From the IMG/VR virus record IMGVR_UViG_2778261315_000003: 41,902 nucleotides of DNA. One strand, written 5' to 3'. Numbering within the stretch: position 1 is the stretch's first letter; each line of letters begins with the position of its first letter. The notes beneath the pieces are model-generated. The model was given only the letters and a program-made list of their open reading frames with translations, did no database searches and was not told where the DNA came from. The position numbers and the translations under genes are program-made. This stretch comes from a virus (lineage: Duplodnaviria > Heunggongvirae > Uroviricota > Caudoviricetes). This document shows positions 7,249 through 36,937 of the stretch, in pieces.

Positions 7249-7263
7249 TTACCTTTCAGGTAA
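7249..7263. promoter_or_regulatory. palindromic operator-like site TTACCTTTCAGGTAA
   Basis: Perfect TTACC-N5-GGTAA; intergenic between tailspike start and divergent small gene. Confidence 0.6.
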
Positions 7264-7339
7264 TTTGCAAAACGTGCTGGATAGCAAACAAATTATTTGC
7301 TACTGTATAAATATACAGTTATTGCATGGAGAAGATAAG

Positions 7340-7597
7340 ATGCAGCAGTATCACTATCCACTGGAAGACGGATTTACCGAAAGGATTCACACGCCGGGAG
7401 GCGTCAGGTCACTGGTGGAGGGATCGCACTTGATGAAATTACTCCGGGATCTCGATAAGGATGGATTTAATGTCGATGGCCCACTTGCCGAACTGACTGC
7501 ACTGATTAACTACGTCACCAGCTCACAGATGTCTATGCGGGATCTGCAAACACATCTCGACTATTGTGCCGAACAATTACGAAAACAAACCCGGTAA
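7340..7597 (+). CDS. small protein paralogous to the C-terminal domain of the Bro-N protein
   Basis: Start moved to internal Met with GGAG RBS, because ORF 7217.. overlaps the operator; roughly 40% identity by eye to the Bro protein C-terminus (IH.P.GV..L.E.S.LM.LL..L..DG..V.G..AELT...Y...RD.QTH..Y). Confidence 0.5.
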   Translation: MQQYHYPLEDGFTERIHTPGGVRSLVEGSHLMKLLRDLDKDGFNVDGPLAELTALINYVTSSQMSMRDLQTHLDYCAEQLRKQTR

Positions 7598-7619
7598 ATT
7601 TAAAGGCCGCAAGAGCGGC

Positions 7620-8348
7620 CTATCGTTTCGCTTTGTGCTCATCCCAGCACGTTTTGCACCATGCCATTAAGCCGTCCGCATTTTGATTATTAGGGTAAAA
7701 GCTGGTTCGTTTTCTGCGGACATTACAAATTGGGCACCACTTCATATGGCGTGTATTCTTTGGGCCATCGAGACACCTTGCACACCATTTAGTCAATCCA
7801 TCTGGATTTTTTGACGATTTCCTGAATTTTTCATATGGAAGGTTTATTCTGCATCGCAAGCACTGCTTGCTACCACTTGAAACTCTGTTAGCTGATTCTT
7901 CTTTTGGCGGCGATACAGAAGGTATTCTTGCTGGCTCTGATATTGCCTGAGGTGCTTTTTTAGATGACTGAGACGATATGTCATCACCAGGGAATCTTCC
8001 ATGATATGCCGGACGCGTTGACACTCCAGGTGGAATCTCAGCTGTAAACGGCTTTGGCTGAATCAGTTGCCTCTCTTTTGCTAACTCCTGCTGTTTATAA
8101 TATGTCTGGATTACCGCACTATCATAAGCAGGAGGTGCGGAAATATTAGGCGCATTACCTCCAGTTTTTTGAAACTGAGTAGAGGTGTGTTCTATCACCT
8201 GTGTACGATTAATCGTTATCTCCCCATCTTCGGTCTTTATCGTTTTGTTATGATTAACGACCGTACGATCAGAGATCTTAGTCTTGTTCTGGTTGATAAC
8301 GTAAATAATCACCGCAACCACACCAACAACTATCCAGAAAACTTCCAT
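7620..8348 (-). CDS. membrane-anchored protein with Pro-rich linker and tandem C4 zinc-ribbon-like repeats
   Basis: 242 aa; N-terminal TM FWIVVGVVAVIIYVI; repeated C-x2-C ... NPDGL..WC..C units near C-terminus; own promoter region with two operators upstream. Confidence 0.6.
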   Translation of the reverse strand: MEVFWIVVGVVAVIIYVINQNKTKISDRTVVNHNKTIKTEDGEITINRTQVIEHTSTQFQKTGGNAPNISAPPAYDSAVIQTYYKQQELAKERQLIQPKPFTAEIPPGVSTRPAYHGRFPGDDISSQSSKKAPQAISEPARIPSVSPPKEESANRVSSGSKQCLRCRINLPYEKFRKSSKNPDGLTKWCARCLDGPKNTRHMKWCPICNVRRKRTSFYPNNQNADGLMAWCKTCWDEHKAKR

Positions 8349-8368
8349 TGCTTTTCCTCACAATAACA

Positions 8369-8383
8369 TTACCTTAAAGGTAA
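8369..8383. promoter_or_regulatory. palindromic operator-like site TTACCTTAAAGGTAA
   Basis: Perfect TTACC-N5-GGTAA, 21 bp upstream of the 7620..8348 gene start. Confidence 0.6.
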
Positions 8384-8461
8384 TATCTTGCTTTCAGGTG
8401 ATCAAGCGTTAAACGCAATCAACCAAATACGGTTGATTTTAATGTTTCTTCGCGCTTATCA

Positions 8462-8476
8462 TTACCTTTACGGTAA
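8462..8476. promoter_or_regulatory. palindromic operator-like site TTACCTTTACGGTAA
   Basis: Perfect TTACC-N5-GGTAA in the divergent intergenic region between the 7620..8348 and Bro genes. Confidence 0.6.
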
Positions 8477-8743
8477 ATTTACATCGCACTCCTCTTGTGC
8501 CATAGTAATCGGGCACTGGCAAAATCCAGTGCCGGGATTGGTCTCCCGGATTACTACAGAGGCACATATGCCGCATAAGCGGTTTTTTTATGTGTAAAGC
8601 GCACCTATTCTATGGTGGGCTGTGTGGGGGCACCGAAAGGTGCGCCGGGTTCCTTTGTAGCCGGTAAGACCAACTCTGCACAGTTCACCACCATCTGATT
8701 GGTCTCAGCGGTGGTGATTAACCTAACTACAAAGGTGATCGCC

Positions 8744-9436
8744 ATGAATACCAAACCTTCCATCTTTTCCTTTGAGTCATCCTGCCAGATCCGTATGTTC
8801 ATGATTGACGGAGAACCTTGGTTTGTCACCAAAGATGTGTGCAATGCTTTGAATATTGATGTTACACAAGCGAGAAAACTTGATAAAAAAGGCTGGAACA
8901 AAAAGGGGCTGTATTCAATACAGACCCCTGGTGGAATACAAGAACTATCCATCGTTTCAGAATCAGGTCTCTACATCCTTATTCTGCGTTGCAAAGAGGC
9001 AATGACTGAAGGAACGAGAGCATTCAGATTTCTTGAATGGGTTACAGGTGAGGTTCTTCCTCAGATCCGCCGCACCGGAAGTTACATTAAAAACTCGCTC
9101 CCGCAGGAAGAACGCATAAAGATGGTTGCCGACCAGGTAGCCAACGCCACGGCGTCAGCAGTAATGCAGGCGATGAAGATAGAGAACAAAACCTACAGTG
9201 CCCCACTGAAGCCCGGCTACCGCAGCCTGATTCATTCTCCGTCTGGTGTTCTCGGCCTGACGGAGAACTCACTGCTGATGAATCTGCTGAACCAGTTACA
9301 GGACGACGGGCACGACGTATCGGGCGCGGCGGCGGAGCTGACCACCATGTTCTGTTACATCGTTGGTGTGAGCAAATGCCTGCGTGATATCCAGACACAC
9401 GCAGAGTACATCAATGACAAGGCAGGGTTCTTCTGA
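8744..9436 (+). CDS. Bro-N domain protein, putative antirepressor
   Basis: Bro-N signature FSFE...IRMFMIDGEPWFVTKDVCNALNI...TPGGIQ...SESGLYILILR...FLEWVTGEVLPQIRRTGSY; start at Met 8744 with AGGTGA RBS. Confidence 0.8.
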   Translation: MNTKPSIFSFESSCQIRMFMIDGEPWFVTKDVCNALNIDVTQARKLDKKGWNKKGLYSIQTPGGIQELSIVSESGLYILILRCKEAMTEGTRAFRFLEWVTGEVLPQIRRTGSYIKNSLPQEERIKMVADQVANATASAVMQAMKIENKTYSAPLKPGYRSLIHSPSGVLGLTENSLLMNLLNQLQDDGHDVSGAAAELTTMFCYIVGVSKCLRDIQTHAEYINDKAGFF

Positions 9437-9521
9437 CGGGCGGCGGCACATGGATGTGCCTACAATTATCAATAATTGTTTACACTCGTTGCAGTTAAAA
9501 GCATTATACTCATGTTTAAAA

Positions 9522-9536
9522 TTACCCGATTGGTAA
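9522..9536. promoter_or_regulatory. palindromic operator-like site TTACCCGATTGGTAA
   Basis: Perfect TTACC-N5-GGTAA, 22 bp upstream of the 9558 start codon. Confidence 0.6.
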
Positions 9537-9557
9537 AGTCGATTGGTTGAGGTTCAT

Positions 9558-9884
9558 ATGAGCAGAAGATATGTCAAGGAGCTGGCTATAGAGTCTGGCA
9601 CCCCTTTGGGTATCGTTCCTGGCTCCAACTATGCCAAGGCTTTAAACCGAGACTCTGTCGTCAAAGTTATATCAAGAGACATGAATATGGTCGGAGACGA
9701 TCTCAGACGGTCAGAAAATCGTGTTTATGCTGAATATATAGTAAAGAACGGAAAAAAAATTGCAGCGCCTGCTGGCGGAAAATGGGCAATAGTGACAGGG
9801 AAAAACTCAAATGCAAGAGGAAAACCAGAAGCTAAAGGAATGTCCTTCGACAAATATGCAAAAATCTATTGGGCAACCAAGTGA
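9558..9884 (+). CDS. hypothetical basic protein (about 108 aa)
   Basis: ORF with GAGGT RBS; Lys/Arg-rich; first gene of an operator-controlled two-gene cassette. Confidence 0.45.
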   Translation: MSRRYVKELAIESGTPLGIVPGSNYAKALNRDSVVKVISRDMNMVGDDLRRSENRVYAEYIVKNGKKIAAPAGGKWAIVTGKNSNARGKPEAKGMSFDKYAKIYWATK

Positions 9885-10359
9885 TAACGAAGAAACTGAG
9901 TTCGAGGAAGTTGAGGAAGGGCTAAGTAACGAGATCATTCAACACCCAGATGCCTTCACAAGAGTTCTTGATCGCCCTGAAATTCAGGAGATAGTTGTCG
10001 CTCACCATGCGTTTCAGGGTCCGCTTCCTCCCCCCTATCTGCTTCGCGGGTATCAGGATATTTTACCTGATGCCCCCGAACGCATCTTCCAGCTGACGGA
10101 GAAGGAGTTTGCTCACCGCCAGAAAATGGAGGAAAAGGCACTTGACGGGGCTATTAATAGAGATAAACGTGGGCAGTGGTTTGGCCTGAGTGCAACTATT
10201 TTTACAGTAGCTTGTGCAACATTATTAGGTTTAACAGGTCATGAAGTTCTAGCTGGCACAGTGATCGGTACAGTTGTTGCAGTGGCTGGTATTTTCGTTC
10301 TTAGACAAAAACCAAGCATCAAGAAGAAATCTGAAGACAACAAACCTGAAGAAAAGTAA
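9856..10359 (+). CDS. membrane protein, DUF2335-like (2 C-terminal TM helices)
   Basis: Acidic N-terminal region; motif HHAFQGPLPPPYLLRGYQDILPDAPERIF as recalled for DUF2335; two TM helices near C-terminus; start could be 9811 or 9856. Confidence 0.55.
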   Translation: MQKSIGQPSDNEETEFEEVEEGLSNEIIQHPDAFTRVLDRPEIQEIVVAHHAFQGPLPPPYLLRGYQDILPDAPERIFQLTEKEFAHRQKMEEKALDGAINRDKRGQWFGLSATIFTVACATLLGLTGHEVLAGTVIGTVVAVAGIFVLRQKPSIKKKSEDNKPEEK

Positions 10360-10382
10360 GCCCGCGCTGCGGGCTTTTTTGT
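10359..10382 (+). terminator. rho-independent terminator
   Basis: GCCCGC-GCTG-CGGGC followed by TTTTTTG immediately after the stop codon. Confidence 0.6.
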
Positions 10383-10452
10383 GGGCGAAACAAAAGTCAG
10401 TGCTACACTCATTGACGCCACATTGAGGTGGTTTATAGATGGAAATTTCACA

Positions 10453-10614
10453 ATGAAAAAAGCATTTGCTGCACTGTTCGTTTTGTTGTCTCTGGTAGCT
10501 TCAACTCAGGCCTTTGCCGGTCGTTGTCAGCACGACAGCGATACTGCCGCTGACGGCTCCCGCTGCGGTGGGCATTCTGCGGATTCCCGCCCGGGCGGCG
10601 GTGGCATTCGTTAA
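10453..10614 (+). CDS. small secreted Cys-containing peptide (about 53 aa)
   Basis: Start at internal Met MKKAFAALFVLLSLVASTQAFA (signal peptide), Gly/Ser/Asp-rich mature part with 2 Cys; candidate TTGACG-16-TATAGA promoter upstream; terminators on both sides. Confidence 0.45.
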   Translation: MKKAFAALFVLLSLVASTQAFAGRCQHDSDTAADGSRCGGHSADSRPGGGGIR

Positions 10615-10645
10615 AAACAAGGCCGCGAAAGCGGCCTGTTTGATC
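10612..10645. terminator. bidirectional terminator between convergent genes
   Basis: GGCCGC-GAAA-GCGGCC hairpin flanked by A-run on one side and T-run on the other. Confidence 0.55.
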
Positions 10646-11495
10646 ACTGTGCAGTTTTCGCTGATCGATTTTCAGCTCTAAATTCAAGAACCGTTTCAAT
10701 ATTTCTTTCCTTCAGCATATCAATAACATTTTTATTCATTTGACTATCACTGGTTAATAACTGGTAAACGTTGCTTCTCTCTTTATCAGAGTTTTCTTTA
10801 ACAGCTGCTTTGCATGCCAAATGCTTATTGAAATTTTCTACATCGCTAGTACAGGAATTTACGGCTGCTGATGAAATATCAGACGCTGAAGAAACACCGT
10901 CATCCAAACGTTTTATAGCATTTTCTATACATGAGTTAAGGGAATAAACGACAACTGAGCGATACCCTTCAGACGCACACCATTCTAAATTTCTTGAAGG
11001 ATCGAGTGGTTTTACTTCGCTGGATTGAATTAACTTGTCAAAAACTGACTTATATTCAATCTGTTTTTTATCTATAGCCCATACTTCAGTAGCTGATTTA
11101 TAATTCCCCGTATGCCTATTAACATCAAATCCATGTTTTATAAGCAAATCTGCCCATGAAAGATTTATTGATTCATTGTTATGAGGCCATTTTCCTGTCA
11201 GAACCGCCCCCATAGACCCCATATATCCGCCATATGATGGTATAGCACCATGGCTCAGTAACTTCTCTGCAACCACAGGGCAATTAATTACATAAGAGGC
11301 GTAAAGCCCATTCCATAAAGCCCCTCTATAGTAATCGCCACGATTAGGTTCTTTTAAGTCGATAGCCTTTGATAATTGTTCGCACGTTTTGCATGCATCA
11401 AAGTTATCCTTATTGCATTGCAATGAACTGGCAGCTGTAGGATTTACAGAGACTATTGAAAGCACTATGCCAAAAAACAAATTTATTTTTTTCAT
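10644..11495 (-). CDS. AT-rich secreted protein of unknown function (moron), possibly ankyrin-repeat-like
   Basis: 283 aa; N-terminal signal peptide MKKINLFFGIVLSIVSVNPTAA; visibly lower G+C than neighbours; segments ...AEKLLSHGA... and ...ADLLIKHGFDVN... loosely fit ankyrin consensus; start 1 bp after the gp16-like stop. Confidence 0.7.
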   Translation of the reverse strand: MKKINLFFGIVLSIVSVNPTAASSLQCNKDNFDACKTCEQLSKAIDLKEPNRGDYYRGALWNGLYASYVINCPVVAEKLLSHGAIPSYGGYMGSMGAVLTGKWPHNNESINLSWADLLIKHGFDVNRHTGNYKSATEVWAIDKKQIEYKSVFDKLIQSSEVKPLDPSRNLEWCASEGYRSVVVYSLNSCIENAIKRLDDGVSSASDISSAAVNSCTSDVENFNKHLACKAAVKENSDKERSNVYQLLTSDSQMNKNVIDMLKERNIETVLEFRAENRSAKTAQ

Positions 11496-11496
11496 C

Positions 11497-14400
11497 CTAT
11501 TTCATCTGCTCTTCAACTTTATTTAGTAATGGTGATATCGCCCACAGATTCTGAAAAGGTAGCATTTTACGGACAGCGTGGGTTTGCTGGCTGTCAAATT
11601 CTCCGTTAAGTACACCATTTGCAACCGTCGCGGCATCACCGCCAAGATCAAAGGTAGGACCAAGTAAAGCACCAATAGCATTACGACTCTGAAACCTTGA
11701 TACCGGAGGCGCACCAAACATCGCGCCAAGACCAAACCTACCGCCGCTTATGTTCTCAACGGTATTCAGCGGCTCAGAGAGCCAGCCAAGCATTCCGCCC
11801 CGGTCGATCCCCTCTTTCACAAGGTTATTCCAGCTGTAGTCGATATCGCGACCGCTTAACTTCTGTTTCATCATATAGACCATTGAGCCAAGCGCAATCG
11901 TGCCAAGCGCACCAAGATAGAATGCAGCATCGCCCTGCTGGATACCAGATACCAGCACCCTGTTATGCTGTGCGAAGATAAACGTTTTGAACTGCGTGAT
12001 CATCTTCCAGCCTTCTTTACTAAAAAACAGCGGTGTATCACCTACGCCAGGCGTTACAATCACTGAGTCTACATCTTTCAGCACTGCAGACTGGAAAATC
12101 TCTCTAGCGAAACGGTCATCCCACAGATGACTATGCCCGGTTAACAGCCCGTCCATATCCTCTCCGTGCTTCCCGAATTGCTCCCCGATTCGGCGCAGAA
12201 CATCTTCATTGATGCCGACCTGTGCCATCTTCCGCATTTCACTTTTGGAGAGCGTGCCACCAGCAGAAACTTGGCGAGCCGCGTCAAGTATCCTCGACTG
12301 CACTATCATCCCAGACCATGATTTAAGTGCGCTGTTCCACTGATTCATCAGCGTCCAGTTACCGAATTTCTGCGTCATCCAGTTCAGACCTCGCTCAGCG
12401 GCGCTTCTCCGGCTATAGGGGTCAGTAAGATCCGCTATAGCCTTTGTACGCGTAGACAGGACATAATCAAGCCCAACGGCCATTTCTCGCAAATCCCTGG
12501 TTGCAATTTTCACTGAGTCCATATTTTTAAGCATGCTTACCATTGGTCCGAGAGATTTTCTCAGGCCATGCTGCATCATCGGTCGCATCAGATCAGTTGC
12601 AGCGGAGACGGTCATTCCACCAAGCAAACGGAGGAAGTTAATATTCCTAGCAACTCGCCCGGCACGAACAAAGAAACTGCGTGGATCTTGAGGTGCGCCG
12701 TAAGTACCAAGCAGTCGGTCACGCATAGCCGTAATATCCCTAATATCAGCCTCCCGTTGCTTCTCAAGAGCTGCACGTCGTTTAGGTGTTTTAGCCTCTT
12801 TTATTAGCCGGGTATATTCCTCACTAACCTGACGGATTTGCTCCCCCATATCTTTACGGCCAAACTGCGCAGTCAGCTCAATTTCTGGTGCCACCTGCCG
12901 GAGATAACTTTCCATGATGTAGTTAACATCTGATTCAAGAAAATCTTCTATACGCTCATCAGGAATAAGCAGCGTTCGGCTTTTAGTGAAACCAGCCCGA
13001 CCAACGAGTCTCTCTGGGATAATATCGGCTGGTACAAGCCCGGAAGGTGCGCCTATTATTTTATTCACGATCTCGTCAGCAGCGTCCTCTGCTTCCTCTC
13101 GGGATAGAGGCTCCATCTGCTTCAGTGCTCGCTCGCGGCTTGCATTCAGCCTTGTGGTTGAATTTGTCCGTTTTTGCAGTCGGCGAAGCTCAGAACGATA
13201 TTTCCGTGGATTATCCAGCAACTCCATATGGCGCTGATAGACAGGAAGCTCACTCTTTGCCTGCGCTATATCATCAAGGCGTGTTTTAAGGTCAGAGCTT
13301 TCTTTCATCATTCTTGCCTGAAGTTTTTCTGATAAAGTCTCGGCCAACTCTTTTTCTATTCTTGTAAGACGCGCCTGTGTGTCAGTCTCCTGAGATATAA
13401 GCTTATTTCGTTTATCCAGTTCTTCCATGAGTAGAATTTTTTTACCAGACCATTTCTCCGCTTCAGCGATTTCACTAGCGAGAGCATCAGCGCGCGGTGC
13501 TGATTCCTCTGCAGTTTTTAGCAATGAATTTATCTTTTCAATTCGCTGACCTGCTTTGTCAGCACCTTTGGCACTAATCCCTTGTATCCAGTTGGCAATT
13601 CGCCCTCTGAATTCAGTGCGGTCGGAAAGTATCTTATCGAACTTATAAATGCGGGGAAGATAACTTTTCGCCGTCACGACATCGATATCCTCAGGAAGGA
13701 TCCCCAGTTCCTGCATACGGGCTTTTGTGGTCTCGAAAATGGGGCGGATTCTGGCGGCTGCTTGTGAAACCTCAGGAATATCACTCTGATCACCACGGCG
13801 CATAGCCATGCCAACAGCTTCATTGAAATCAATAAAGTTCATCCTCTTCACGCCGCGGGCGCTAACAGATTTGCTGTACTGCTGGTAAGCATCACGAGTA
13901 GCTTCCATCTGCTTATAAAGCATGGCGTCGTATTGCTTAATCTTAGTCTCGACTGCCGTAAACGTAGCCAACCCCTCATCATTTTTGGCGAAGAAATAGT
14001 TATTTTCGGCAAGCTGCTGGTTAATCTGACGGGAAACAAGAGATGGTGATTGCGCCAAGCGGCCAGCAGGAGTGACACTCAACGTTTTGTTAGCAAGTCC
14101 AAGTCCAGCAAGCTGTTCCTGATCGAGTGTGGTATTGAAAACCTGAGCTGCACCAATGCTTTGAGGAGAATCCATACCTCGCAAATGATTACCTACTGAG
14201 TTAACCACTGCCTCGCGCGCGCTAGGTCCAGCAAGTAGCTGTGCACCAGCACCAAGGATCCCACCAACGAGAGCATCAACAACAACGTTCGATACGCTCT
14301 CCATCGGTGAGCGAGCTTCCTGAGTGGCCTGCAATGCGGCCTCTGAAGCAACACTGCCAGCAGCATTGGCTAAAGCAAAACGTCCGGCTGTTTCTGCAAT

Positions 14401-22457: not shown

Positions 22458-22458
22458 C

Positions 22459-23940: not shown

Positions 23941-23948
23941 TTCCTCTC

Positions 23949-26619: not shown

Positions 26620-26633
26620 TTCAATGACTCCGG

Positions 26634-26840: not shown

Positions 26841-26930
26841 ATCAATGACTCCGTACGCAATTAAATTATTACCAATTTAACCACATATGATTTATTTATC
26901 GTAGACAGTTGACATTTAACGCGCCAATTA

Positions 26931-26945
26931 TTACCTTTCAGGTAA
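26931..26945. promoter_or_regulatory. palindromic operator-like site TTACCTTTCAGGTAA
   Basis: Perfect TTACC-N5-GGTAA upstream of the head operon; identical to site at 7249. Confidence 0.6.
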
Positions 26946-27267
26946 CCAAAGAGTTCATTCCGGTTACTAACCTGACTGGCTTGTCGTTAAATTGAACAGG
27001 TGGAGTGAGCTTTTATTTTGAGCAGTACGGCGTATGGCACATGCGCCGATAGCGGTCTGGATACGTTTAAGGGGCACCCTCCCTTGCTCGGGCAAACGAA
27101 CCAGGTAGCCGGAATGTGCAAGTCGAGCGGTTTTATTCCGCGCACGGGGATTCACCATCCCGGCGATTCGGTGTGACGCCTCGGAAGAGACGAGGGTACA
27201 ACGATGAGAGCATTTATGGAGCCGCGACAAAGTGTGGTGCCTTAACAGGCTAAGTGCTCTCAGCGTT

Positions 27268-27344
27268 GTGGCATTAGCTCAGTTGGACAGAGCAACCGCC
27301 TTCTAAGCGGTTGGTCGCAGGTTCGAATCCTGCATGCCACGCCA
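27268..27344 (+). tRNA. tRNA-Arg (anticodon UCU)
   Basis: Cloverleaf folded by hand: acceptor GTGGCAT/ATGCCAC, D-arm GCTC..GAGC, anticodon stem ACCGC/GCGGT with loop CTTCTAA, T-arm GCAGG-TTCGAAT-CCTGC, discriminator G, encoded CCA. Confidence 0.9.
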
Positions 27345-27387
27345 GAATCACGCCTAAGGACCGTGATGCCAGAAGTTCCAGGTGCTT

Positions 27388-27430
27388 GGCGGTGATGGTT
27401 TCCCTTGAAGGACTATCACCGCCCTTTTTA
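27388..27430 (+). terminator. stem-loop with U-run downstream of tRNA
   Basis: GGCGGTGAT-N18-ATCACCGCC followed by CTTTTT. Confidence 0.4.
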
Positions 27431-27507
27431 CAGCAGGACGCCATTGCGATGACTTCATGCTGTAAACCCGTACAGCCACGGAAGGCATAACTCATTGCTT
27501 CCAGTTC

Positions 27508-27531
27508 GCCCGGTTCGCCGGGCATTTTTTT
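27508..27531 (+). terminator. rho-independent terminator (UUCG tetraloop)
   Basis: GCCCGG-TTCG-CCGGGC followed by ATTTTTTT; only 12 bp upstream of the next ORF. Confidence 0.6.
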
Positions 27532-27542
27532 AAGATGAGATC

Positions 27543-27962: not shown

Positions 27963-27975
27963 CGCCGTGACATGT

Positions 27976-28010
27976 CACAAACAGCCAGCCGATGAGCTGG
28001 CTTTGTTTTA
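27976..28010. terminator. terminator hairpin between convergent moron and terminase genes
   Basis: AGCCAGC-CGATGA-GCTGGCT followed by TTGTTTT. Confidence 0.5.
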
Positions 28011-28052
28011 TCCTCATCAGAGGATATCAACGACATTATCCCCTCAAGCGGA

Positions 28053-29528: not shown

Positions 29529-30121
29529 TGATTACCATCCTGACGTTCTTTGAGTCGCTTCCTGGCTGCTGCTATGCGATCAGCAATTGTCACATTCACA
29601 TTAACATCCAGACGTTCTTTGAACGCGTTGACATCAACATGCTTACCAATCAGCTCAAGGTTCTTCACCTTGTCAGGCCATTTAATTTTTTTGAGGATTG
29701 TCTCTATCGAATCCTCGTTCATGTTCATGATGGTCGACGACAGATCAAAGCCACTAAGCGTAGTGCGCCAGATTTTCGGCCACTCACGGATTGGTTTAAG
29801 GCTCCCATCGTCGTTGAGGATGTCGATCACGTCCATCTGGTCGATCTCCACCAGGCGCATGAGAACGTAATCAGCACTGACGCGCATTCGTTTGTTGCGC
29901 TCCTCCATCAACTCGGCAATCCGTTTTTGAATGCGTTCATCGCGCATCATGACACTGGCTTTAACTGCCGCTGTATTTGGGGAGAATCCTGCGTTAATCG
30001 CTGCCTGAGTCTGGTTTTCAGGCGTTTTGATGTATGACTGACAATAAGCCTCCTGCATTGCTGTTAGTGGCTTAAATTGCGTTGATTTGCGTTTATAGGT
30101 TTTAGGTTCAGCAGGCATCAT
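29525..30121 (-). CDS. terminase small subunit
   Basis: Motif AYCQSYIKTPENQTQAAINAGFSPNTAAVKAS typical of small terminase HTH family; start placed at internal Met (ORF extends to 30199). Confidence 0.65.
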   Translation of the reverse strand: MMPAEPKTYKRKSTQFKPLTAMQEAYCQSYIKTPENQTQAAINAGFSPNTAAVKASVMMRDERIQKRIAELMEERNKRMRVSADYVLMRLVEIDQMDVIDILNDDGSLKPIREWPKIWRTTLSGFDLSSTIMNMNEDSIETILKKIKWPDKVKNLELIGKHVDVNAFKERLDVNVNVTIADRIAAARKRLKERQDGNQ

Positions 30122-30195
30122 AACCACCGTGGTAATTGTTACCGTTGTGGTAATAATACCATGCAAAATAAAGCCGCCATAGTTGGCGGCAGTAT

Positions 30196-30429
30196 TCAAA
30201 ATCCATCAAATTCATCGTAAAAACTCTCGTCAAGATACCCTTCCCATTTACCGCGAATGAAAATTACATCCTCGCCGCAAGGGTGCTGACTGTCGATAAC
30301 TATATCCCTCCTGGCGCAACCATACTTATGCATGAGAAATTTAACCTCTTTCGGAAAATTTGCTGAGTTATCTCTCATATCTTCAAGGTCGTAGCGTATT
30401 TTTGGCATAACACCTTCGTGACATGTCAC
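30196..30429 (-). CDS. hypothetical protein
   Basis: 77 aa ORF, coupled in early/nin-like operon. Confidence 0.4.
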   Translation of the reverse strand: MTCHEGVMPKIRYDLEDMRDNSANFPKEVKFLMHKYGCARRDIVIDSQHPCGEDVIFIRGKWEGYLDESFYDEFDGF

Positions 30430-30767
30430 ACTATTAATTTCGTTTCATGCCAGCCTTTAGTCACCCAGCATTGCGAGTCACCATTACACGGGCATGAATT
30501 CACAGGAACTCTCTCGCCGCACTTACCGCAACGTTTTCTGCTGATCGATTTTATACGCCCGCGCACGCGTGCATCATCCTGGCGGATCAGTAACGCTATA
30601 TACTCACCAAATTCGTAAGGCGCACGCCCGGGGCGACGCGTGGCACAGTTACGCTCCAGCATTTCAATTTCCTGAGCATCAAGCACAATCTCCAGCTTAC
30701 GTACACCGGATTCAGCTTGTCTGGCTCTCTGAGCGGCTTTGCGCTCTGCTGCTGATTTAGCCATCAA
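30426..30767 (-). CDS. hypothetical protein with Cys-rich C-terminus
   Basis: 113 aa; basic coiled N-terminus, C-terminal CGKCG...CPCNGDSQC. Confidence 0.45.
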   Translation of the reverse strand: MMAKSAAERKAAQRARQAESGVRKLEIVLDAQEIEMLERNCATRRPGRAPYEFGEYIALLIRQDDARVRGRIKSISRKRCGKCGERVPVNSCPCNGDSQCWVTKGWHETKLIV

Positions 30768-30791
30768 TATTCACCTTTATTGCGAACATAC

Positions 30792-31013
30792 TTAGCTGTG
30801 TGTTGCCGATGTGCGGAGATTCTCTTCTATCAATTCCACGCATTCTGACCGACGAACAAATAATTCGTCTCCGTTATGAATTACGACATAGCCGTAAGCG
30901 GTTTTACGCATCACATCGAACTCATCCCATACGGAAATACCGCACTCTGCTAACGAGCAATCCAAATAATCTTCCGGATGCTTGTCGGTGTTATTAATGA
31001 TGCGAATCCTCAA
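30792..31013 (-). CDS. hypothetical protein
   Basis: 73 aa ORF. Confidence 0.4.
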   Translation of the reverse strand: MRIRIINNTDKHPEDYLDCSLAECGISVWDEFDVMRKTAYGYVVIHNGDELFVRRSECVELIEENLRTSATHS

Positions 31014-31043
31014 ATCTTTTCACCTTTAAGGATAAGTTGCATG

Positions 31044-31826: not shown

Positions 31827-31836
31827 TTGTTATGCC

Positions 31837-32034
31837 TCAATACACGAAATCTGTTTTAAATTCATGGTTACATTCTGGACAGCATGTTTCGTAACCTTTT
31901 ATTTCTTCACATGCCTGTTTAGCTCCAGAAAACTCCCAGAAATCTGGATCACAAAGCAGATCGAAATTGTGACCACATTTGGGACATTCGGTATCAAGTG
32001 ACAGACTCCAGTAGGCAGTGGTGTTTTTATCCAT
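31837..32034 (-). CDS. small zinc-ribbon protein
   Basis: 65 aa with CPKCGH ... CCPEC pairs. Confidence 0.45.
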   Translation of the reverse strand: MDKNTTAYWSLSLDTECPKCGHNFDLLCDPDFWEFSGAKQACEEIKGYETCCPECNHEFKTDFVY

Positions 32035-32035
32035 A

Positions 32036-32821
32036 TCACTCTCCTTTGATGCGAATGCCAGCGTCAGACATCATATGCAGATACTCAACTGCATCCTGAA
32101 CCCATTGACCGCCAATCCCGTAATAGCGATGCGTAATGATGTCGATAGTTACTAACGGGTCTTGTTCGATTAACTTCCGCAGAAACTCTTCCAGGTCACC
32201 AGTGCAGTGCTTGATGACAGGAGTTTTCCCAGGATGGCGAACAACAAGAAACTGATTTCCGACTTCACGGACTTCGTTGCTTTCCAGTTCTGCAATGCGC
32301 TTCTCTGAGGCTTCCAGCTTCTCGCGCATATCGTCAACGTACTCGACCAGAGAACCGCCAGCAGGAATTTCGCACTCCTCGACCAGTTGGAAGTAGATAT
32401 CAGCTGCGGCCCGTGTGTTGCTATGCCTAGCGTCGCCCATCTCACCTTCACGAAGAGCATCGCGTTCGGCGGTAAGATTGGCTATTTTGCTGTCTTTGCC
32501 TTCCAGCTCAACGCGCAGCCTCCCAACCGTAAGCGCAATATCCTCGTTCTCCTGGTCGCGTGATTTGATGTATTGCTGGTTTCTTTCCCGTTCATCCAGT
32601 AGTGCCAGCACGGTTTCTGGTCCGGCCAGAAATTTGAAGGCGTTGAGCGCATCAATATCAACGCCGTAATCTTTAAGTTCCTGTTCGCTTATCAGATCAT
32701 CATCAACTGGCAACATTAACAGGCGTTCCATTGCTGGAATTGCACGTTCCGCCACCTCACGCAATGCCTGGTAATTAATTTCGCTCACTGGTTGCCTCCT
32801 TTGCGAATCTGTTCCGCCCAT
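32036..32821 (-). CDS. hypothetical coiled-coil protein (possibly Ea22-like)
   Basis: 261 aa; N-terminus INYQALREVAERA resembles Ea22-family starts by recall; central coiled coil. Confidence 0.45.
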   Translation of the reverse strand: MGGTDSQRRQPVSEINYQALREVAERAIPAMERLLMLPVDDDLISEQELKDYGVDIDALNAFKFLAGPETVLALLDERERNQQYIKSRDQENEDIALTVGRLRVELEGKDSKIANLTAERDALREGEMGDARHSNTRAAADIYFQLVEECEIPAGGSLVEYVDDMREKLEASEKRIAELESNEVREVGNQFLVVRHPGKTPVIKHCTGDLEEFLRKLIEQDPLVTIDIITHRYYGIGGQWVQDAVEYLHMMSDAGIRIKGE

Positions 32822-33396
32822 TCTTCAAGGGATTTCTCCGCATATTCACCAGACAGGCCATCAATCGGATGCGGTTCATTAGCCAACTCTTCTTTCGCTG
32901 ACAGAATCATGCGTGTAACGTCGAAAACTTCACGTAAAGACTTATTGATAAATCCGTGATTGAACGCAGCAGCAAGGCGGCTGGCGGTATAGTTAATCCC
33001 CTCGTTGCGTGCTTCTGCACGAATTTCAGCCAGGAAAGCGTCGGTGGCTGGGGTTTCTGGCATACAGTCAGCAGCGTCGAAATACTCTTCACTTTTGTCA
33101 TCCCAAATCCAGCAATCATCTTTGATGAACTTGTTCAGCCCCGCATTCTCCGCCGCCAGCGCCGAAAACTTCTCGTGTGCCAACTTAACAGCCGAATCAG
33201 CCTGCTTAATTGACTCAATCGCTCTCTGGTGGTCTTCGGCCAGCGCATTAGCACGCACCAGTTGCACTTCCAGTTGCGCTGCCAAATCGCTGATCAGCTT
33301 TGCCACACTGCGCATATCAACGGCACCACATTCTGCTTTCAGTTCCGAAGCCATCTCATGCCCGGCGGCAACTAACCCTTTGATATTACTTTCCAT
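32785..33396 (-). CDS. hypothetical coiled-coil protein
   Basis: 203 aa, helical, acidic. Confidence 0.45.
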   Translation of the reverse strand: MESNIKGLVAAGHEMASELKAECGAVDMRSVAKLISDLAAQLEVQLVRANALAEDHQRAIESIKQADSAVKLAHEKFSALAAENAGLNKFIKDDCWIWDDKSEEYFDAADCMPETPATDAFLAEIRAEARNEGINYTASRLAAAFNHGFINKSLREVFDVTRMILSAKEELANEPHPIDGLSGEYAEKSLEEWAEQIRKGGNQ

Positions 33397-33457
33397 CTTT
33401 ACCCTCGCTTATCCACATAACTTATTGATTACATTGATAACTAAAAAGATCGTCTAT

Positions 33458-33802
33458 TCAGAACTCTTCGATGTTCCAGCCACCACCTGCTTTCTTTGGC
33501 TTAACCGTTACCCCGATGATTCGGAACGGATACTGATCTGCGGCGACTTTGGTTTTCACCCTGGCGTCGTCGGTCCAGAAACCTTTCACTTCGTGCAGTT
33601 CCATCTCGCCGGTGGCGAGCATCACAGCAAAATCGGGCGTATAGAACGTGTTGTCAGCTAACCGCAACTTGATACCCTCGAATCGATACCAGGCGATTTC
33701 CCCTGCACGTTTACGCTGCTCAAGGTGCTGGCAATACGCAGATTCTGTTTTGTTCATCTGGCCTGTTTTGAGTCGACCAAGAGCCTGTATCTGTTTTCTC
33801 AT
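33458..33802 (-). CDS. DUF1064-like phage protein, putative nuclease
   Basis: 114 aa; pattern AGEIAWYRFEG...YTPDF...HEVKG resembles DUF1064 by recall. Confidence 0.45.
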   Translation of the reverse strand: MRKQIQALGRLKTGQMNKTESAYCQHLEQRKRAGEIAWYRFEGIKLRLADNTFYTPDFAVMLATGEMELHEVKGFWTDDARVKTKVAADQYPFRIIGVTVKPKKAGGGWNIEEF

Positions 33803-33805
33803 GAT

Positions 33806-33820
33806 TTACCCCTGAGGTAA
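33806..33820. promoter_or_regulatory. palindromic operator-like site TTACCCCTGAGGTAA
   Basis: Perfect TTACC-N5-GGTAA, 4 bp upstream of the 33802 start codon. Confidence 0.6.
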
Positions 33821-33867
33821 TTAAAAACCACATAAGACACGAAATCAATAGATCTTAGAACATTTTA

Positions 33868-33882
33868 TTACCTAGCAGGTAA
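33868..33882. promoter_or_regulatory. palindromic operator-like site TTACCTAGCAGGTAA
   Basis: Perfect TTACC-N5-GGTAA; second site in same intergenic region, 48 bp centre-to-centre from previous. Confidence 0.6.
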
Positions 33883-33919
33883 TTATCAAAACGTAAAAAA
33901 ATGCGCTATCGCGCTGGTA

Positions 33920-34696
33920 TTACTTGATAAATCCTGCCGCCTTTCCCCGCCTGTATTCCTCCATCAGCCACTGCGCCGGTGTTATTCCCCCCAGGGTAGC
34001 GGCGTTAGGCATACACCCGAAACTTCGCCCTGGTGGATGGTAAACGTCTCTCCCTGTGTCCGGAGGCGTACTCATGGGTTCTGGCTTTGCCTGTATGCTG
34101 ATCACCGGATCGGGTATCTGCTGTCCGGAAGCCACCTTTTTCGCCCAATCATCAAGCAGCCTGCGCGCGTGTTTCTCAACCTCAATCTCGCTAAGCTGGC
34201 GCTGATACATTGCACGGCGGGTATCACATACGACCCAGTACATAACCGGATGCCGCCACGGGAATCTTTCGGGACCACCAGGATATAAACTTTTTTCCTT
34301 GCTGTACCGGTGAAACTCCGCCATCACATCGTCAATGGTGACGCCAAGAACCATCTTGCTGTCTTTACACCACTTGATAAATTGCCCTGGCGACGGCCAG
34401 AACGGAGATTCACTGGCGCGGGCGTGGCGCATACCAGCGTTAACCTGTTCCATTGTAGTGATCCCATTCTCCAGAAACGCAAGCATCCATTGCTTACGGA
34501 ATTCATTAAGTTTGTTCTGCTCCCTTATGGTCGAAACGCTTGCAGGAAATGCAGCCTGTAACTGGACAAATAGTTCATTGAAAATTCTAGCGACCTGCTC
34601 CTTTTTGCCATTGCTGTCACGCCGCTCTTCATGCACAGCAACACCATGCTCACGTAAGCGATCGTACTCATTGAGAAGTTCTGGAGTTGATTTCAT
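33920..34696 (-). CDS. replication protein P-like (helicase loader)
   Basis: 258 aa; strong resemblance to lambda P by recall (AFPAS...QWMLAFLENGITTMEQVNAGMRHAR...FWPSPGQFIKWC). Confidence 0.85.
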   Translation of the reverse strand: MKSTPELLNEYDRLREHGVAVHEERRDSNGKKEQVARIFNELFVQLQAAFPASVSTIREQNKLNEFRKQWMLAFLENGITTMEQVNAGMRHARASESPFWPSPGQFIKWCKDSKMVLGVTIDDVMAEFHRYSKEKSLYPGGPERFPWRHPVMYWVVCDTRRAMYQRQLSEIEVEKHARRLLDDWAKKVASGQQIPDPVISIQAKPEPMSTPPDTGRDVYHPPGRSFGCMPNAATLGGITPAQWLMEEYRRGKAAGFIK

Positions 34697-35510
34697 CCCA
34701 CACCCCTTCTATCCAGTCAGTGTTATTCCAGTCAAGCTCATCGCTTTTCCCGACGTTTTTTGATTTTCCCCTGATATGATTTACGTGCCTGGCGAATTTT
34801 TGTTCCCACTGAACCTGCGTGAACACTTTGCCCTCAGCCATCCAGTAATCCCGGAATGCAGCAAGTTCAGCAGGTGTAAATTCCGGTTCCGGCAGGGCCG
34901 TTCCCCACAGCGCAGCACGCCGTCGAAAATCCGGCGATGGATGCCAGCCATCGGCCATCGGAAATTTCCCAATAGGTTCACTCAGGCCATCCAGAAATGC
35001 AGGTTCTGCCACCTGCAACGGCGTACCGTTCGCTTCACTGGTCGGATCACTCTCGCGCGCGTGTGCTATGTGTGGGGTTTTATATATATCTTCCTCTTCC
35101 TCTGGTAACTCCTTTTGTAACGCTGTTGGCGTTACTTTTTGCGTTACTCGTTTTCGATGCTCTGCCACTCTTCTATTCGTAAGTGCACGTTTTTTCGATG
35201 ATTCTCCATTGTGTCGCTCAAAGTTTGGAAGAATTAGTTTGCCGTCATGATAAGCAAGCCATCCGACGCTAATGAGGGCGTCAGCAAATCCTGTAATAAA
35301 AGCGAGTCTATCAAGTACTCCTTTTGTAACGCTGCCAGCGTTACCGTCTATTGTTTGCTGGTCAGCCCATGCCCATATACGAACCAGCTTTCCAATAACA
35401 GCATCTGGATCAATACCCAGAATTTCTGCTATCTGAAAAATTTCAGGTTTATCAGGAGTGATAACTTCAACCTTAATCCAGCTGCTTGCCATAGGTTTCC
35501 CCTCTTGCAC
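34668..35510 (-). CDS. replication initiator with DnaT-like C-terminal domain (lambda O position)
   Basis: 280 aa; C-terminal DGWHPSPDF...FTPAELAAFRDYWMAEGKVFTQVQWEQKFARHV typical of DnaT-domain phage replication proteins; precedes and overlaps P-like gene. Confidence 0.7.
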   Translation of the reverse strand: MQEGKPMASSWIKVEVITPDKPEIFQIAEILGIDPDAVIGKLVRIWAWADQQTIDGNAGSVTKGVLDRLAFITGFADALISVGWLAYHDGKLILPNFERHNGESSKKRALTNRRVAEHRKRVTQKVTPTALQKELPEEEEDIYKTPHIAHARESDPTSEANGTPLQVAEPAFLDGLSEPIGKFPMADGWHPSPDFRRRAALWGTALPEPEFTPAELAAFRDYWMAEGKVFTQVQWEQKFARHVNHIRGKSKNVGKSDELDWNNTDWIEGVWDEINSRTSQ

Positions 35511-35685
35511 TCTTTAGTGCACAAGCAAATTCATTACGATGGCGGTTGGCGCTATTCATTGCACATTCAACACATGTTCCGTTCAGAACATACCTTTCAG
35601 AGAGATGGCCGTGACGGCACCGCTTTCCTGTGAAATAGCGATTTAACCCGGCTTTTGCGGCCTCCATTCTGGTTACTATCTTCAA
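35473..35685 (-). CDS. small zinc-finger protein (CII position)
   Basis: 70 aa with C-x-H ... C-x2-C pattern (RCRHGH...CVEC). Confidence 0.4.
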   Translation of the reverse strand: MKIVTRMEAAKAGLNRYFTGKRCRHGHLSERYVLNGTCVECAMNSANRHRNEFACALKSARGETYGKQLD

Positions 35686-35763
35686 TTTTTCCGCCCCTTT
35701 TTGTTATTGATATTGGCTATTTTGCACAATTGGAAAATTTGATCAACCAGATTTGGTTTTTTA

Positions 35764-35778
35764 TTACCTTTGAGGTAC
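35764..35778. promoter_or_regulatory. near-palindromic operator-like site TTACCTTTGAGGTAC
   Basis: One mismatch from TTACC-N5-GGTAA; intergenic between Cro-like gene and downstream replication operon. Confidence 0.45.
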
Positions 35779-35833
35779 GAATAGATATGAAAAGACCGCC
35801 GGATGGCGGTCTACAGAGGGTTGTGGCTGGATA

Positions 35834-36064
35834 TCATGAGTAGAAGAAGTATGCCAGTTCTGCTTTTGAGCGCAGCCATTGTCTTGTTTTACAGGCTTTA
35901 AAAAGCCCATTCATCAATACCTTACCTGGCATTTTGCGCTTACCTGTTAAGTGAGTCTGGATATAGTGACTCGTCGTTCCGGCTTCCTGTGCGAAGGCTT
36001 CACGCTCATCCGGAGTAAGTGCAAGCCAGTGCTTTTTGAAATCGAAATGTCCGTTATCGCTCAT
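35834..36064 (-). CDS. Cro-like small DNA-binding regulator
   Basis: 76 aa, divergent from repressor gene, HTH-like LTPDEREAFAQEAGTTSHYIQTHLTGKRKMP. Confidence 0.5.
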   Translation of the reverse strand: MSDNGHFDFKKHWLALTPDEREAFAQEAGTTSHYIQTHLTGKRKMPGKVLMNGLFKACKTRQWLRSKAELAYFFYS

Positions 36065-36100
36065 AGCTATTGCCTGATATTTATTTCAGATAATAAATAT

Positions 36101-36115
36101 TCACCCATAAGGTAA
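36101..36115. promoter_or_regulatory. operator-like site variant TCACCCATAAGGTAA
   Basis: One-mismatch variant in the repressor/cro intergenic region. Confidence 0.4.
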
Positions 36116-36131
36116 CAAAAATCAAGGATAG

Positions 36132-36146
36132 TTACCTATGAGGTGC
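36132..36146. promoter_or_regulatory. operator-like site variant TTACCTATGAGGTGC
   Basis: Two-mismatch variant, adjacent to the perfect site at 36149. Confidence 0.4.
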
Positions 36147-36148
36147 AT

Positions 36149-36163
36149 TTACCTGTTGGGTAA
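36149..36163. promoter_or_regulatory. palindromic operator-like site TTACCTGTTGGGTAA
   Basis: Perfect TTACC-N5-GGTAA in the divergent repressor/cro promoter region. Confidence 0.6.
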
Positions 36164-36218
36164 TATTGCTTTAAATTGAATCATCTACTGATTCATATAT
36201 GAGGCGATTTTCCAGAAA

Positions 36219-36803
36219 ATGAAAAGTATCCAGGACGTCCGCAGGCAAAATCTCAACGACTTGATCGACCGTGAATTCAATGGTGTTCAGACGCGGATGG
36301 CAGAAAAACTTGGAACTCAGGCAAATCTGGTAAACCGCTGGGCTCTTGGCAAGAAGGTTATCGGCGACCAGGTTGCGCGAAAAATTGAAGCTGCCGCCAA
36401 TAAACCCCGTAACTGGCTTGATATCGATCGCTCGCTTTCTCAGGAAGGTTTTCAGCCTGTCGGCCCAAGCGACATTGGTCAGCTGGCGGCTCACAACCTG
36501 GAACGCTGGATGAGCGAAAGCCGCGACCTTTCAACTCAGGGAAAACTTCACCGCGCATCCGGCGTCGCCCAGGTGACAATCAGCCGCCTGTTAAACAATG
36601 AGGTCAGTGTTTCCATTTCCACCCTGGAGAATGTTGCATCAGCATTCGGGCGTCACGGCTATGAATTACTGATTCACCCGCACGACCCTGCGACCATCAA
36701 CTATGACCGCTCGCGCTACGCATTGTTACCCGAAACCGAGAAAGCAAAGATCGAAAGTTATATTGAATTTGTCATCAACCAGAACGAAAAAAACAAACAA
36801 TAA
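36219..36803 (+). CDS. tandem-HTH (XRE-family) repressor, CI position, no peptidase domain
   Basis: 194 aa; two HTH-like segments (VQTRMAEKLGTQANLVNRWALGK and LHRASGVAQVTISRLLNNE); no S24/LexA-like C-terminal domain visible. Confidence 0.65.
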   Translation: MKSIQDVRRQNLNDLIDREFNGVQTRMAEKLGTQANLVNRWALGKKVIGDQVARKIEAAANKPRNWLDIDRSLSQEGFQPVGPSDIGQLAAHNLERWMSESRDLSTQGKLHRASGVAQVTISRLLNNEVSVSISTLENVASAFGRHGYELLIHPHDPATINYDRSRYALLPETEKAKIESYIEFVINQNEKNKQ

Positions 36804-36820
36804 AATCATATTTTTCAGTA

Positions 36821-36850
36821 AGTAAGCCGCCTTCTGGCGGCTTTTTTATT
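36821..36850 (+). terminator. rho-independent terminator after repressor gene
   Basis: AAGCCGCC-TTCT-GGCGGCTT followed by TTTTATT. Confidence 0.55.
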
Positions 36851-36860
36851 GCCTATACTA

Positions 36861-36875
36861 TTACCTAATAGGTAA
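36861..36875. promoter_or_regulatory. palindromic operator-like site TTACCTAATAGGTAA
   Basis: Perfect TTACC-N5-GGTAA upstream of a TTGACA -35-like hexamer (36895..36900). Confidence 0.6.
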
Positions 36876-36922
36876 TTTTTTTAACTCATATCTATTGACA
36901 TCAAACCAAATACGCATAATTA

Positions 36923-36937
36923 TTACCTCAACGGTAA
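36923..36937. promoter_or_regulatory. palindromic operator-like site TTACCTCAACGGTAA
   Basis: Perfect TTACC-N5-GGTAA just downstream of the candidate -10 region and 20 bp before an RBS/ATG. Confidence 0.6.

Follow-up and report, generated by a model that had tools for sequence, protein, structure and literature searches.

Dispersed TTACC-N5-GGTAA palindromes as probable operators of an epsilon15-type repressor in a Uetakevirus podophage

The stretch of DNA analysed here (the window, 41,902 nucleotides of the IMG/VR record IMGVR_UViG_2778261315_000003, a virus of the class Caudoviricetes) contains numerous copies of the 15-bp hyphenated palindrome TTACC-N5-GGTAA, dispersed between its genes. 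This distribution raises the questions of which protein reads the palindrome, which transcription units it controls and to what extent such a system is already known. From the sequence comparisons described below, the palindrome (with ATTACC-N5-GGTAAT as its preferred form) very probably serves as operator for Rep, the prophage repressor of the epsilon15 type whose gene lies at 36219-36803 on the plus strand. By its sequence, the window itself is assigned to the genus Uetakevirus, as a temperate podophage of the group of epsilon15 and phiV10. Most of it displays 97-98% nucleotide identity with the Escherichia phages TL-2011b, vB_EcoP_ZX5, EC.W1-9 and phiV10, whose records have the opposite orientation, and its end falls inside the integrase gene. 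The gene map of the window is an annotation transferred from four relatives, and it follows gene by gene the order found in Uetakevirus genomes.

The dispersed palindromic operator is already on record for the type phage of the genus, epsilon15, and the system is a known one that was not discovered here. The epsilon15 record AY150271.2 (Kropinski et al. 2007, Virology 369:234) contains seven features annotated as "protein_bind, repressor, lysogeny", and all seven read (A)TTACC-N5-GGTAAT. One is localized before terS, one before the head operon and one between the ant-like gene and the tailspike gene; of the remaining four, three occupy the interval from rep to the early-left genes and the other precedes the nin-like genes. 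Four of the 11 perfect sites of epsilon15 are unannotated in its record, namely two sites of the rep/cro switch, the site that precedes the lysis genes and the proximal site of the nin-like unit. The records of phiV10, TL-2011b and SPC32H carry no operator annotation, and the motif is present there in 8, 10 and 10 copies, respectively. Full-text literature searches for the motif together with "operator" or "repressor" returned irrelevant papers only, the primary SPC32H and epsilon15 papers being outside the search. The present finding restates, in a phage nearly identical to published ones, a system annotated in epsilon15 and structurally characterised in SPC32H.

Distribution and conservation of the palindrome

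A search of both strands of the window has detected 11 perfect copies of TTACC-N5-GGTAA, at positions 7249, 8369, 8462, 9522, 26931, 30139, 33806, 33868, 36149, 36861 and 36923. The original prediction, made from the letters of the window alone, had listed ten perfect sites, all of which were recovered where they had been placed; the eleventh, at 30139 before terS, had been overlooked. It had also estimated that such a palindrome should arise by chance far less than once in 42 kb, and this estimate agrees with the absence of any match in 100 dinucleotide-preserving shuffles of the window, compared with the 11 real copies. Four sites have one mismatch (3624, 30121, 35764 and 36101). The three variants listed previously are real, those at 35764 and 36101 with one mismatch and that at 36132 with two, and the intragenic one-mismatch site at 3624 is probably a chance match.

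The non-coding DNA represents 3,568 bases, i.e. 8.5% of the window, and it contains all the perfect sites (11/11; binomial P ~2e-12, Fisher P 1.6e-12), so that the intergenic position formerly claimed for every perfect copy extends to the eleventh. Among the sites with one mismatch, three out of four likewise fall in non-coding DNA (P=0.002). Sites with two mismatches show no non-coding enrichment and occur at background frequency in the window. The comparison with coding and host DNA, which had been suggested as a control, was carried out on two 50-kb pieces of E. coli K-12, where a single site was found within the coding region of yacL, and on lambda (48.5 kb), where there was none.

When all 5-mer arms were screened with spacers of 0 to 12, the combination of TTACC with N5 came out on top both in the window and in seven relatives. 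In each of these eight genomes (8/8), which are the basis of the comparisons below, the motif exceeds every other hyphenated palindrome in frequency and has 8 to 11 copies. The arms are invariant, the 5-bp spacer is nearly information-free and the outer A/T is a preference. The extension of the symmetry to ATTACC-N5-GGTAAT, which had been noticed in the flanks, is seen in about two thirds of the arms, but it does not amount to a rule.

Wherever a site is present, its distance to the orthologous start codon is nearly fixed. The site precedes the start of terS by 21 bp (23 bp in one genome), that of the first head gene by 91 bp (92 bp in one genome), that of the tailspike gene by about 99-107 bp and that of rep by 54-56 bp. 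Where the nin-like series opens with a DUF1064 homolog, this gene is preceded by two sites at 4 and 66 bp, and in the phiV10-type genomes the first early-left gene is preceded by two others at 20 and 82 bp. The resulting 62-bp operator pairing is observed before the nin-like genes in 8/8 genomes and before the early-left genes in 7/8, the eighth having 63 bp.

These regularities bear on a non-regulatory explanation, according to which the motif would be a methyltransferase or restriction target, or a recombination or module-boundary sequence. Such an origin can be envisaged for a phage that, from the gene map, encodes several methyltransferases, and some restriction-modification systems typically recognise bipartite sequences whose spacer has a fixed length. 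Restriction targets, however, are depleted or random and not arranged between genes at fixed distances from start codons. Moreover, the sites are retained while the adjacent accessory genes differ, and both the fusion of the motif to -10 hexamers and the three-site switch described below would be left unexplained. The restriction/methylation reading was rejected on the distribution of the sites, and a non-regulatory role of any of these kinds is regarded as extremely improbable.

Rep, p41 and the antirepressor Ant

The protein encoded at 36219-36803 is 100% identical to gp40 of phiV10 and is a full-length homolog of the SPC32H Rep. In a phmmer search against the PDB, it matches 5D50_A (SPC32H Rep, E=4e-42, residues 1-190) and 5D4Z (C-terminal domain, E=4e-20). 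By homology, Rep is predicted to consist of an N-terminal helix-turn-helix (HTH) DNA-binding domain and of a C-terminal HTH_3-like domain responsible for oligomerisation and antirepressor binding. Pfam assigns residues 106-147 to HTH_3 and has only a weak match of HTH type for the N-terminal half; the S24 peptidase domain was not found in this Pfam search, which returned HTH-type families only. Four Rep types are present in sequenced phages: the phiV10 type, the Tyrion/BUCT554 type (~76% identity), the Klebsiella type (~45%) and the epsilon15/SPC32H type (~42%). The Rep of the window and that of SPC32H are 42% identical (N-terminal domain 52%, C-terminal domain 38%). The residues NLVNRW (36-41), which belong to the putative recognition helix, are nevertheless invariant in seven Reps representing all types. 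An invariant helix matching invariant operator arms points to Rep as the likely reader of the motif. Together with the identity to phiV10 gp40 and the homology to the SPC32H protein, it argues for the 36219-36803 product as the probable binder, as the original prediction had proposed.

Two attributes formerly given to this regulator need revision. It had been called a tandem-HTH repressor; two HTH-like halves do exist, but only the N-terminal one goes with the TTACC half-site, to judge from the cI protein of the Pseudomonas phage PseuP_224 described in the last section. It had also been described as dimeric, which conflicts with secondary accounts of the SPC32H Rep as a DNA-binding tetramer. 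As reported in these accounts of Kim et al. 2016 (PNAS 113:E2480), Rep is a tetramer on palindromic DNA, its DNA-binding pair is made of N-terminal domains contributed by different Rep dimers, and the tetrameric antirepressor Ant disassembles it. In the phage ZX5, whose Rep has the same sequence as that of the window, overexpression of Rep reduces the endolysin and holin transcripts by 99.99% and 99.97%, respectively, and abolishes free phage (PMC9782041).

A second possible binder of the same operators, judging from its sequence and position, is p41, a protein of 76 residues in the cro position (35834-36064, minus strand). The sites could be bound mainly by p41, or p41 and Rep could compete for them as do Cro and CI of lambda, and this reading is compatible with the one that favours Rep; the dispersed sites would then have two roles, the maintenance of lysogeny and the damping of early and accessory transcription in the lytic cycle. 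p41 matches PHROG 35 ("transcriptional repressor"), it contains an HTH-like stretch, AGTTSHYIQxHLTG, that is invariant across the genus, and its gene is divergent from rep across the three-site operator. A similar open reading frame (ORF) apparently occupies the cro position in PseuP_224, which has ATTACC-N4-GGTAAT sites; this ORF is unannotated and its resemblance to p41 (GTTRAYLRMIAYGHK vs GTTSHYIQTHLTGKR) was noted by eye only. On the other side, the sites of epsilon15 were attributed by its authors to the repressor, Rep overexpressed alone shuts off lytic transcription (PMC9782041), and the conserved 62-bp pairs are explained less naturally by a Cro-like protein of 76 residues than by a tetrameric Rep. 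Covariation between the Rep helix and the operator arms was tried as a test of the binder and abandoned, neither of them varying within the genus, so that Rep and p41 are inseparable on this basis. We consider a main or competing role of p41 as a minor, though serious, possibility, and retain Rep as the preferred reader.

The composition of the spacer is the only feature of the operator that tracks the Rep clade. The number of G/C per 5 bp is about 1.7 in the clade of phiV10, Tyrion and Enterobacter vs 0.5 in the clade of epsilon15, SPC32H and Klebsiella (1.3-2.0 vs 0.2-0.7 for individual genomes), with similar genome G+C contents (0.47-0.53). The difference has a P value of ~2e-5 in a reduced set, a value that is inflated by the relatedness of the sites by descent. 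One half-site and one helix are used throughout the genus despite Reps that share 42% identity, and specificity perhaps lies outside the contacted bases. Tentatively, immunity specificity might be achieved by indirect readout of the spacer or by the pairing of Rep with Ant, and not by the contacted bases, with tetramers in addition bridging the 62-bp pairs; we hold this to be rather doubtful at present.

Since Rep has no S24 domain, induction would be independent of its cleavage. The gene ant, coding for a small antirepressor, is located at 7340-7597 (plus strand); its product has 87% identity to the SPC32H Ant and belongs to PHROG 450, with PHROG 1760 ("anti-repressor") also matched. A perfect LexA box, CTGTATAAATATACAG, is present at 7303-7318, 22 bp upstream of the ant ATG. 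This box is kept in Tyrion, BUCT554, epsilon15 and SPC32H, while that of the Klebsiella phage deviates by a single mismatch. In SPC32H, the switch to induction reportedly consists in the control of ant by LexA. These elements, overlooked previously, lead us to assign the induction route of the window to the LexA-controlled antirepressor: DNA damage would remove LexA from the box at 7303-7318, Ant would be made and Rep would be stripped from the DNA.

Operators, promoters and transcription units

In the lysogen, Rep would sit on about 15 sites, one N-terminal HTH (with NLVNRW in its putative helix) reading each 5-bp arm. Alignments of the orthologous regulatory regions reveal a recurrent module in which the last bases of the -10 are the first bases of the operator, and a -10-like hexamer is fused to the motif in six cases. 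The early-left region illustrates this organisation. A distal perfect operator (36861-36875) is followed by a T-tract and lies upstream of the -35 of a PL-like promoter TTGACA-17-AATTAT (36895-36923, plus strand; -35 at 36895-36900, -10 at 36918-36923). The final T of the -10 is the first T of a perfect proximal operator (36923-36937), which ends 20 bp before the first early-left gene (36957), and both the -35 core and the -10/operator junction are kept in the eight genomes. Before the nin-like genes, on the minus strand, the distal operator (33868-33882, perfect) comes directly after the terminator that ends the replication genes. It is followed by a promoter with a -35 TTGATT (33843-33848) and a -10 TTTAAT (33820-33825), then by the proximal operator (33806-33820, perfect), which overlaps the ribosome-binding site 4 bp from the ATG of the DUF1064 gene.

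The perfect operator of terS (30139-30153) is fused to an extended -10, TGgTATTAT (30153-30161, minus strand), preceded by a terminator (30173-30190). A second operator with one mismatch (30121-30135), weaker, overlaps the terS ribosome-binding site, and a degenerate site is conserved there in 7 genomes. The start of terS is placed at 30118 in the TL-2011b and epsilon15 records, whereas in the phiV10 record it corresponds to 30199 in window coordinates, 81 bp further upstream. The start at 30118 is more likely because the longer ORF of the phiV10 record would enclose an intrinsic terminator and both operators.

Rep occupying an operator that shares bases with the -10 would obstruct RNA polymerase at the early-left, nin-like and terS promoters and at two accessory promoters. 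The operators of terS and of the nin-like genes extend over the ribosome-binding site as well. The second operator of the early-left and nin-like promoters lies 62 bp (~six helical turns) upstream, beyond the -35. With a tetrameric Rep, as reported for SPC32H, one tetramer could bridge both paired sites in a very tight loop, and would hold the two operators and clamp the promoter between them.

Three operators are found between the divergent genes rep and p41, where they would form a lambda-like switch. O1 (TCACCCATAAGGTAA, 36101-36115, one mismatch) lies within the leftward promoter of p41, in its -35 and spacer. O2 (TTACCTATGAGGTGC, 36132-36146, two mismatches in the window) is perfect in the phages epsilon15 and SPC32H and in that of Klebsiella. 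O3 (36149-36163) is perfect and is located 56 bp before the ATG of rep and 85 bp before that of p41. The three sites are spaced by 31 and 17 bp, and their position is conserved in the eight genomes. The promoter of rep could not be placed with confidence, with only weak -10 and -35 matches near O3. A further one-mismatch site, at 35764-35778, is located between the terminator that follows p41 and the replication genes; speculatively, it could serve a promoter reading back through p41 to rep, like PRE of lambda. The site lies beside this terminator and was noted together with the interval 35793-35812; in phiV10 it has CATATTTGGTT ahead of it on the opposite strand, a sequence that reads CAGATTTGGTT in the window.

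The accessory units are also equipped with operators. The perfect sites at 8369-8383 (distal) and 8462-8476 (proximal) bracket a promoter, TTGATT (8433)-18-TATCAT (8462), whose -10 is fused to the proximal site. This promoter reads into an isrK-like small RNA (8513-8589, plus strand; Rfam 74.7 bits), a C4 antisense RNA (8608-8695, plus strand; Rfam 78.6 bits), both above the gathering score, and downstream of them an antirepressor-like gene with the Pfam domain Bro-N (8745-9436). The region 8369-9436 is interpreted from these matches as a module like immI of P1 under the control of the operators. The phage would therefore encode two antirepressor modules, this Bro-N/C4 unit and the small LexA-controlled Ant. 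A last perfect operator (9522-9536) is fused to the -10-like hexamer TAAAAT (9517-9522) before an accessory gene (9559-9884). Between ant and the immI-like module, a gene of 242 amino acids (7620-8348, minus strand; PHROG 6762) displays matches to endonuclease VII/HNH-like and Lar-like zinc-ribbon proteins. It is unmatched by the TL-2011b, phiV10 and SPC32H proteins used for the gene map.

The late operons are organised in another way. The head-operon site (26931-26945, perfect), which 91 bp separate from the first head gene, shares bases with the -10 of a divergent promoter (TTGACA at 26909-26914, 17 bp, TACCTT); this promoter is conserved and points at a tRNA-Arg and a p03-like gene. The tRNA-Arg(UCU) (27268-27344, plus strand) is antisense to an ORF at 27274-27525 (minus strand; PHROG 4647), which is annotated as a hypothetical protein in the phiV10, TL-2011b and BUCT554 records, and the SPC32H record has a tRNA-Arg at the equivalent place. 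The tailspike/ant site (7249-7263, perfect) belongs to a divergent region and lies upstream of both genes, at 105 bp from the ATG of the tailspike gene and 77 bp from that of ant. In most genomes the head, tailspike and lysis operons are preceded by a separate conserved core, CATAT(G/A)TGGTT, with a -10-like hexamer 7 nt later. In the window, the block CATATGTGGTT-N5-GGTAATA is found on the minus strand at 26867-26889 (core 26879-26889), 49 nt before the ATG of the head operon, and at 7197-7219 (core 7209-7219), 75 nt before the tailspike ATG. A degenerate core, CATAAATGGTT, is present at 3821-3831 (minus strand), 69 nt before the first gene of the lysis cassette. These blocks have no -35, which implies a late activator, and they suggest a class of activator-dependent promoters that would be distinct from the operators. 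A fixed 62-bp register between the head and tailspike sites and a GGTAAT half-site was considered and dropped: the distance is 62 bp for the head operon but 50 bp for the tailspike gene, and the late promoters of the lysis operons have no half-site. The single head and tailspike sites would act as an added lock on the late genes, or on the adjoining divergent promoters.

The positions of these late sites also bear on the idea that the motif is a positive element, either the site of a late or early activator or a shared promoter element of the phage. The head, tailspike and (in epsilon15) lysis sites occupy activator-like upstream positions, and the motif is fused to a -10-like hexamer in the six cases mentioned above. 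The distal sites, however, have no promoter of their own, the palindromic symmetry with a free spacer suits a dimeric pair of HTH domains, and the same motif builds the rep/cro switch. The late operons already possess a different conserved element (CATATRTGGTT), and the coverage of early, late and accessory units together fits a global lock better than a class-specific activator. A positive role is consequently judged unlikely, and repression by Rep is preferred.

Several observations nonetheless weigh against Rep as the single reader and against a simple mode of action. The link between Rep and the motif is drawn from the GenBank annotation of epsilon15 and from inference; p41 is as invariant as Rep and co-occurs with it even in the Pseudomonas phage, and covariation cannot tell the two proteins apart. 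The head and tailspike operators are situated about 30-55 bp upstream of the late-promoter block, which is unusual for simple occlusion. No good operator was found for the lysis operon in the window, the only candidate (3880-3894) having two mismatches; it was dropped, such sites being at background frequency. Finally, the 93 bp of the 8369/8462 pair correspond to a non-integral number of helical turns. The claim of the original prediction that one regulator directly controls all the operons of the phage therefore has to be narrowed: the anatomy supports it well for the switch and for five units (early-left, nin-like, terS, immI-like and 9522), and direct control is no more than plausible for the head and tailspike operons, but the lysis operon has no credible site and the late operons share a separate promoter element.

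As regards a late regulator, no homolog of N or Q was recognised in the window by Pfam and PHROG searches. In the position of lambda Q, the early-right genes end ahead of terS with a gene (30426-30767, minus strand) for a conserved protein of 113 amino acids. Its N-terminus is basic and helical, its C-terminus is rich in Cys (CxxC...CxC...C), and it matches PHROG 536 ("transcriptional regulator"). It has 623 homologs; among the 120 matches listed, all are "hypothetical" or unnamed, with at least 77% identity. No sequence match was obtained in Pfam, NCBIfam or the PDB. AlphaFold gave a weak model (pLDDT 47 for the sequence alone and 61 when an alignment was supplied), for which the best Foldseek match in the PDB had E=3.6, i.e. 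no fold match. The protein is retained as a candidate for a late regulator. Another perfect palindrome, GTGACATGTCAC, is present in 2-4 copies in each of the eight genomes (27967-27978 and 30418-30429 in the window; 2143, 19518 and 39613 in epsilon15). Nearly all copies of GTGACATGTCAC are at operon ends near an intrinsic terminator; the locations are downstream of the Q-position gene, the junction where TerL and p03 converge, and the close of the structural operon. A third copy is absent from the window.

Comparison with known phage systems

Epsilon15 and the window share an identical motif and the same positions at terS (21 bp), the head operon (91 bp), ant/tailspike, rep/early-left and upstream of the nin-like genes, with Reps that have 42% identity. 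They differ in that the window has an extra operator pair on the immI-like module and lacks the pre-lysis site of epsilon15, and in that the spacers are A/T-rich in epsilon15 and mixed in the window. SPC32H likewise has a full-length Rep homolog, an Ant (87%) with a LexA box and ten motif sites at the same positions. Its Rep, for which the structures PDB 5D50 and 5D4Z are available, belongs to a clade different from that of the window. The Rep-Ant switch of SPC32H is the subject of Kim & Ryu 2013 (J Virol 87:11775) and of Kim et al. 2016.

The original prediction had described the design as P1- or N15-like and not lambda-like. The comparison with P1 is partly apt: in P1 too, one repressor has operators over many operons, late and accessory ones included, and the immI unit of P1 combines a repressor-controlled promoter, a C4 antisense RNA and an antirepressor-like gene, an arrangement that fits the unit at 8433-9436. 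The operators of P1, however, are asymmetric 17-mers read by the C1 monomer, which is unrelated to Rep, whereas the sites of the window are symmetric and its repressor is of the XRE/HTH_3 type. N15 (CB repressor) is induced through the SOS/LexA-controlled antirepressor AntC. In the mycobacteriophage L5, many dispersed sites known as "stoperators" are bound by gp71; they are asymmetric and orientation-dependent and act on elongation inside transcription units. Unlike these, the sites of the window are palindromic, all between genes and mostly at promoter-like elements. The core immunity region, on the other hand, is lambda-like. As in lambda, a three-site operator separates the divergent repressor and cro genes, and an operator-controlled early-left promoter is located just downstream of the repressor gene. 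It differs from lambda by a Rep without the S24 autocleavage domain and by operators that are also found outside the immunity region. The design is a hybrid, which combines a lambda-like three-site rep/cro operator and an operator-flanked early-left promoter with dispersed sites.

The phage PseuP_224 (OP795451) displays the same repressor family in a classic lambda-type layout. The N-terminal domain of its cI is homologous to that of Rep (39% identity over residues 4-68), and it is associated with the same ATTACC/GGTAAT half-sites: three ATTACC-N4-GGTAAT and one single-mismatch site flank the cI gene (10906, 10932, 11768 and 11807), and no such sites were found elsewhere in the 43 kb of this genome. 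Unlike the window, PseuP_224 has a 4-bp spacer, a cI with a C-terminal half of the S24/LexA type (by eye) and an annotated Q antiterminator. Since only the N-terminal domain is shared, the half-site appears to go with the N-terminal HTH. The restriction of the sites to the flanks of cI indicates that dispersal belongs to the epsilon15-like genome plan and not to the repressor family.

What remains of interest beyond the known system is the strict 62-bp pairing, the invariance of the arms and of the recognition helix across the Rep clades, and the clade-dependent composition of the spacer. These comparative results are a modest addition and alter no concept. For the window, the main value is in annotation, with about 15 intergenic sites that can be labelled as putative Rep operators, a terS start at 30118 and an induction route through a LexA-controlled antirepressor. 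The comparison also assigns the half-site to the N-terminal domain and separates the late-promoter element from the operators. The genus gains a plan of operators and promoters resolved to the base pair, which comprises the -10/operator fusion, the 62-bp pairs and the three-site switch. Phages of the phiV10 type serve as reporter phages for O157 (review PMC7472331), and relatives are prophages of pathogenic E. coli, which gives the set of operators a practical use.

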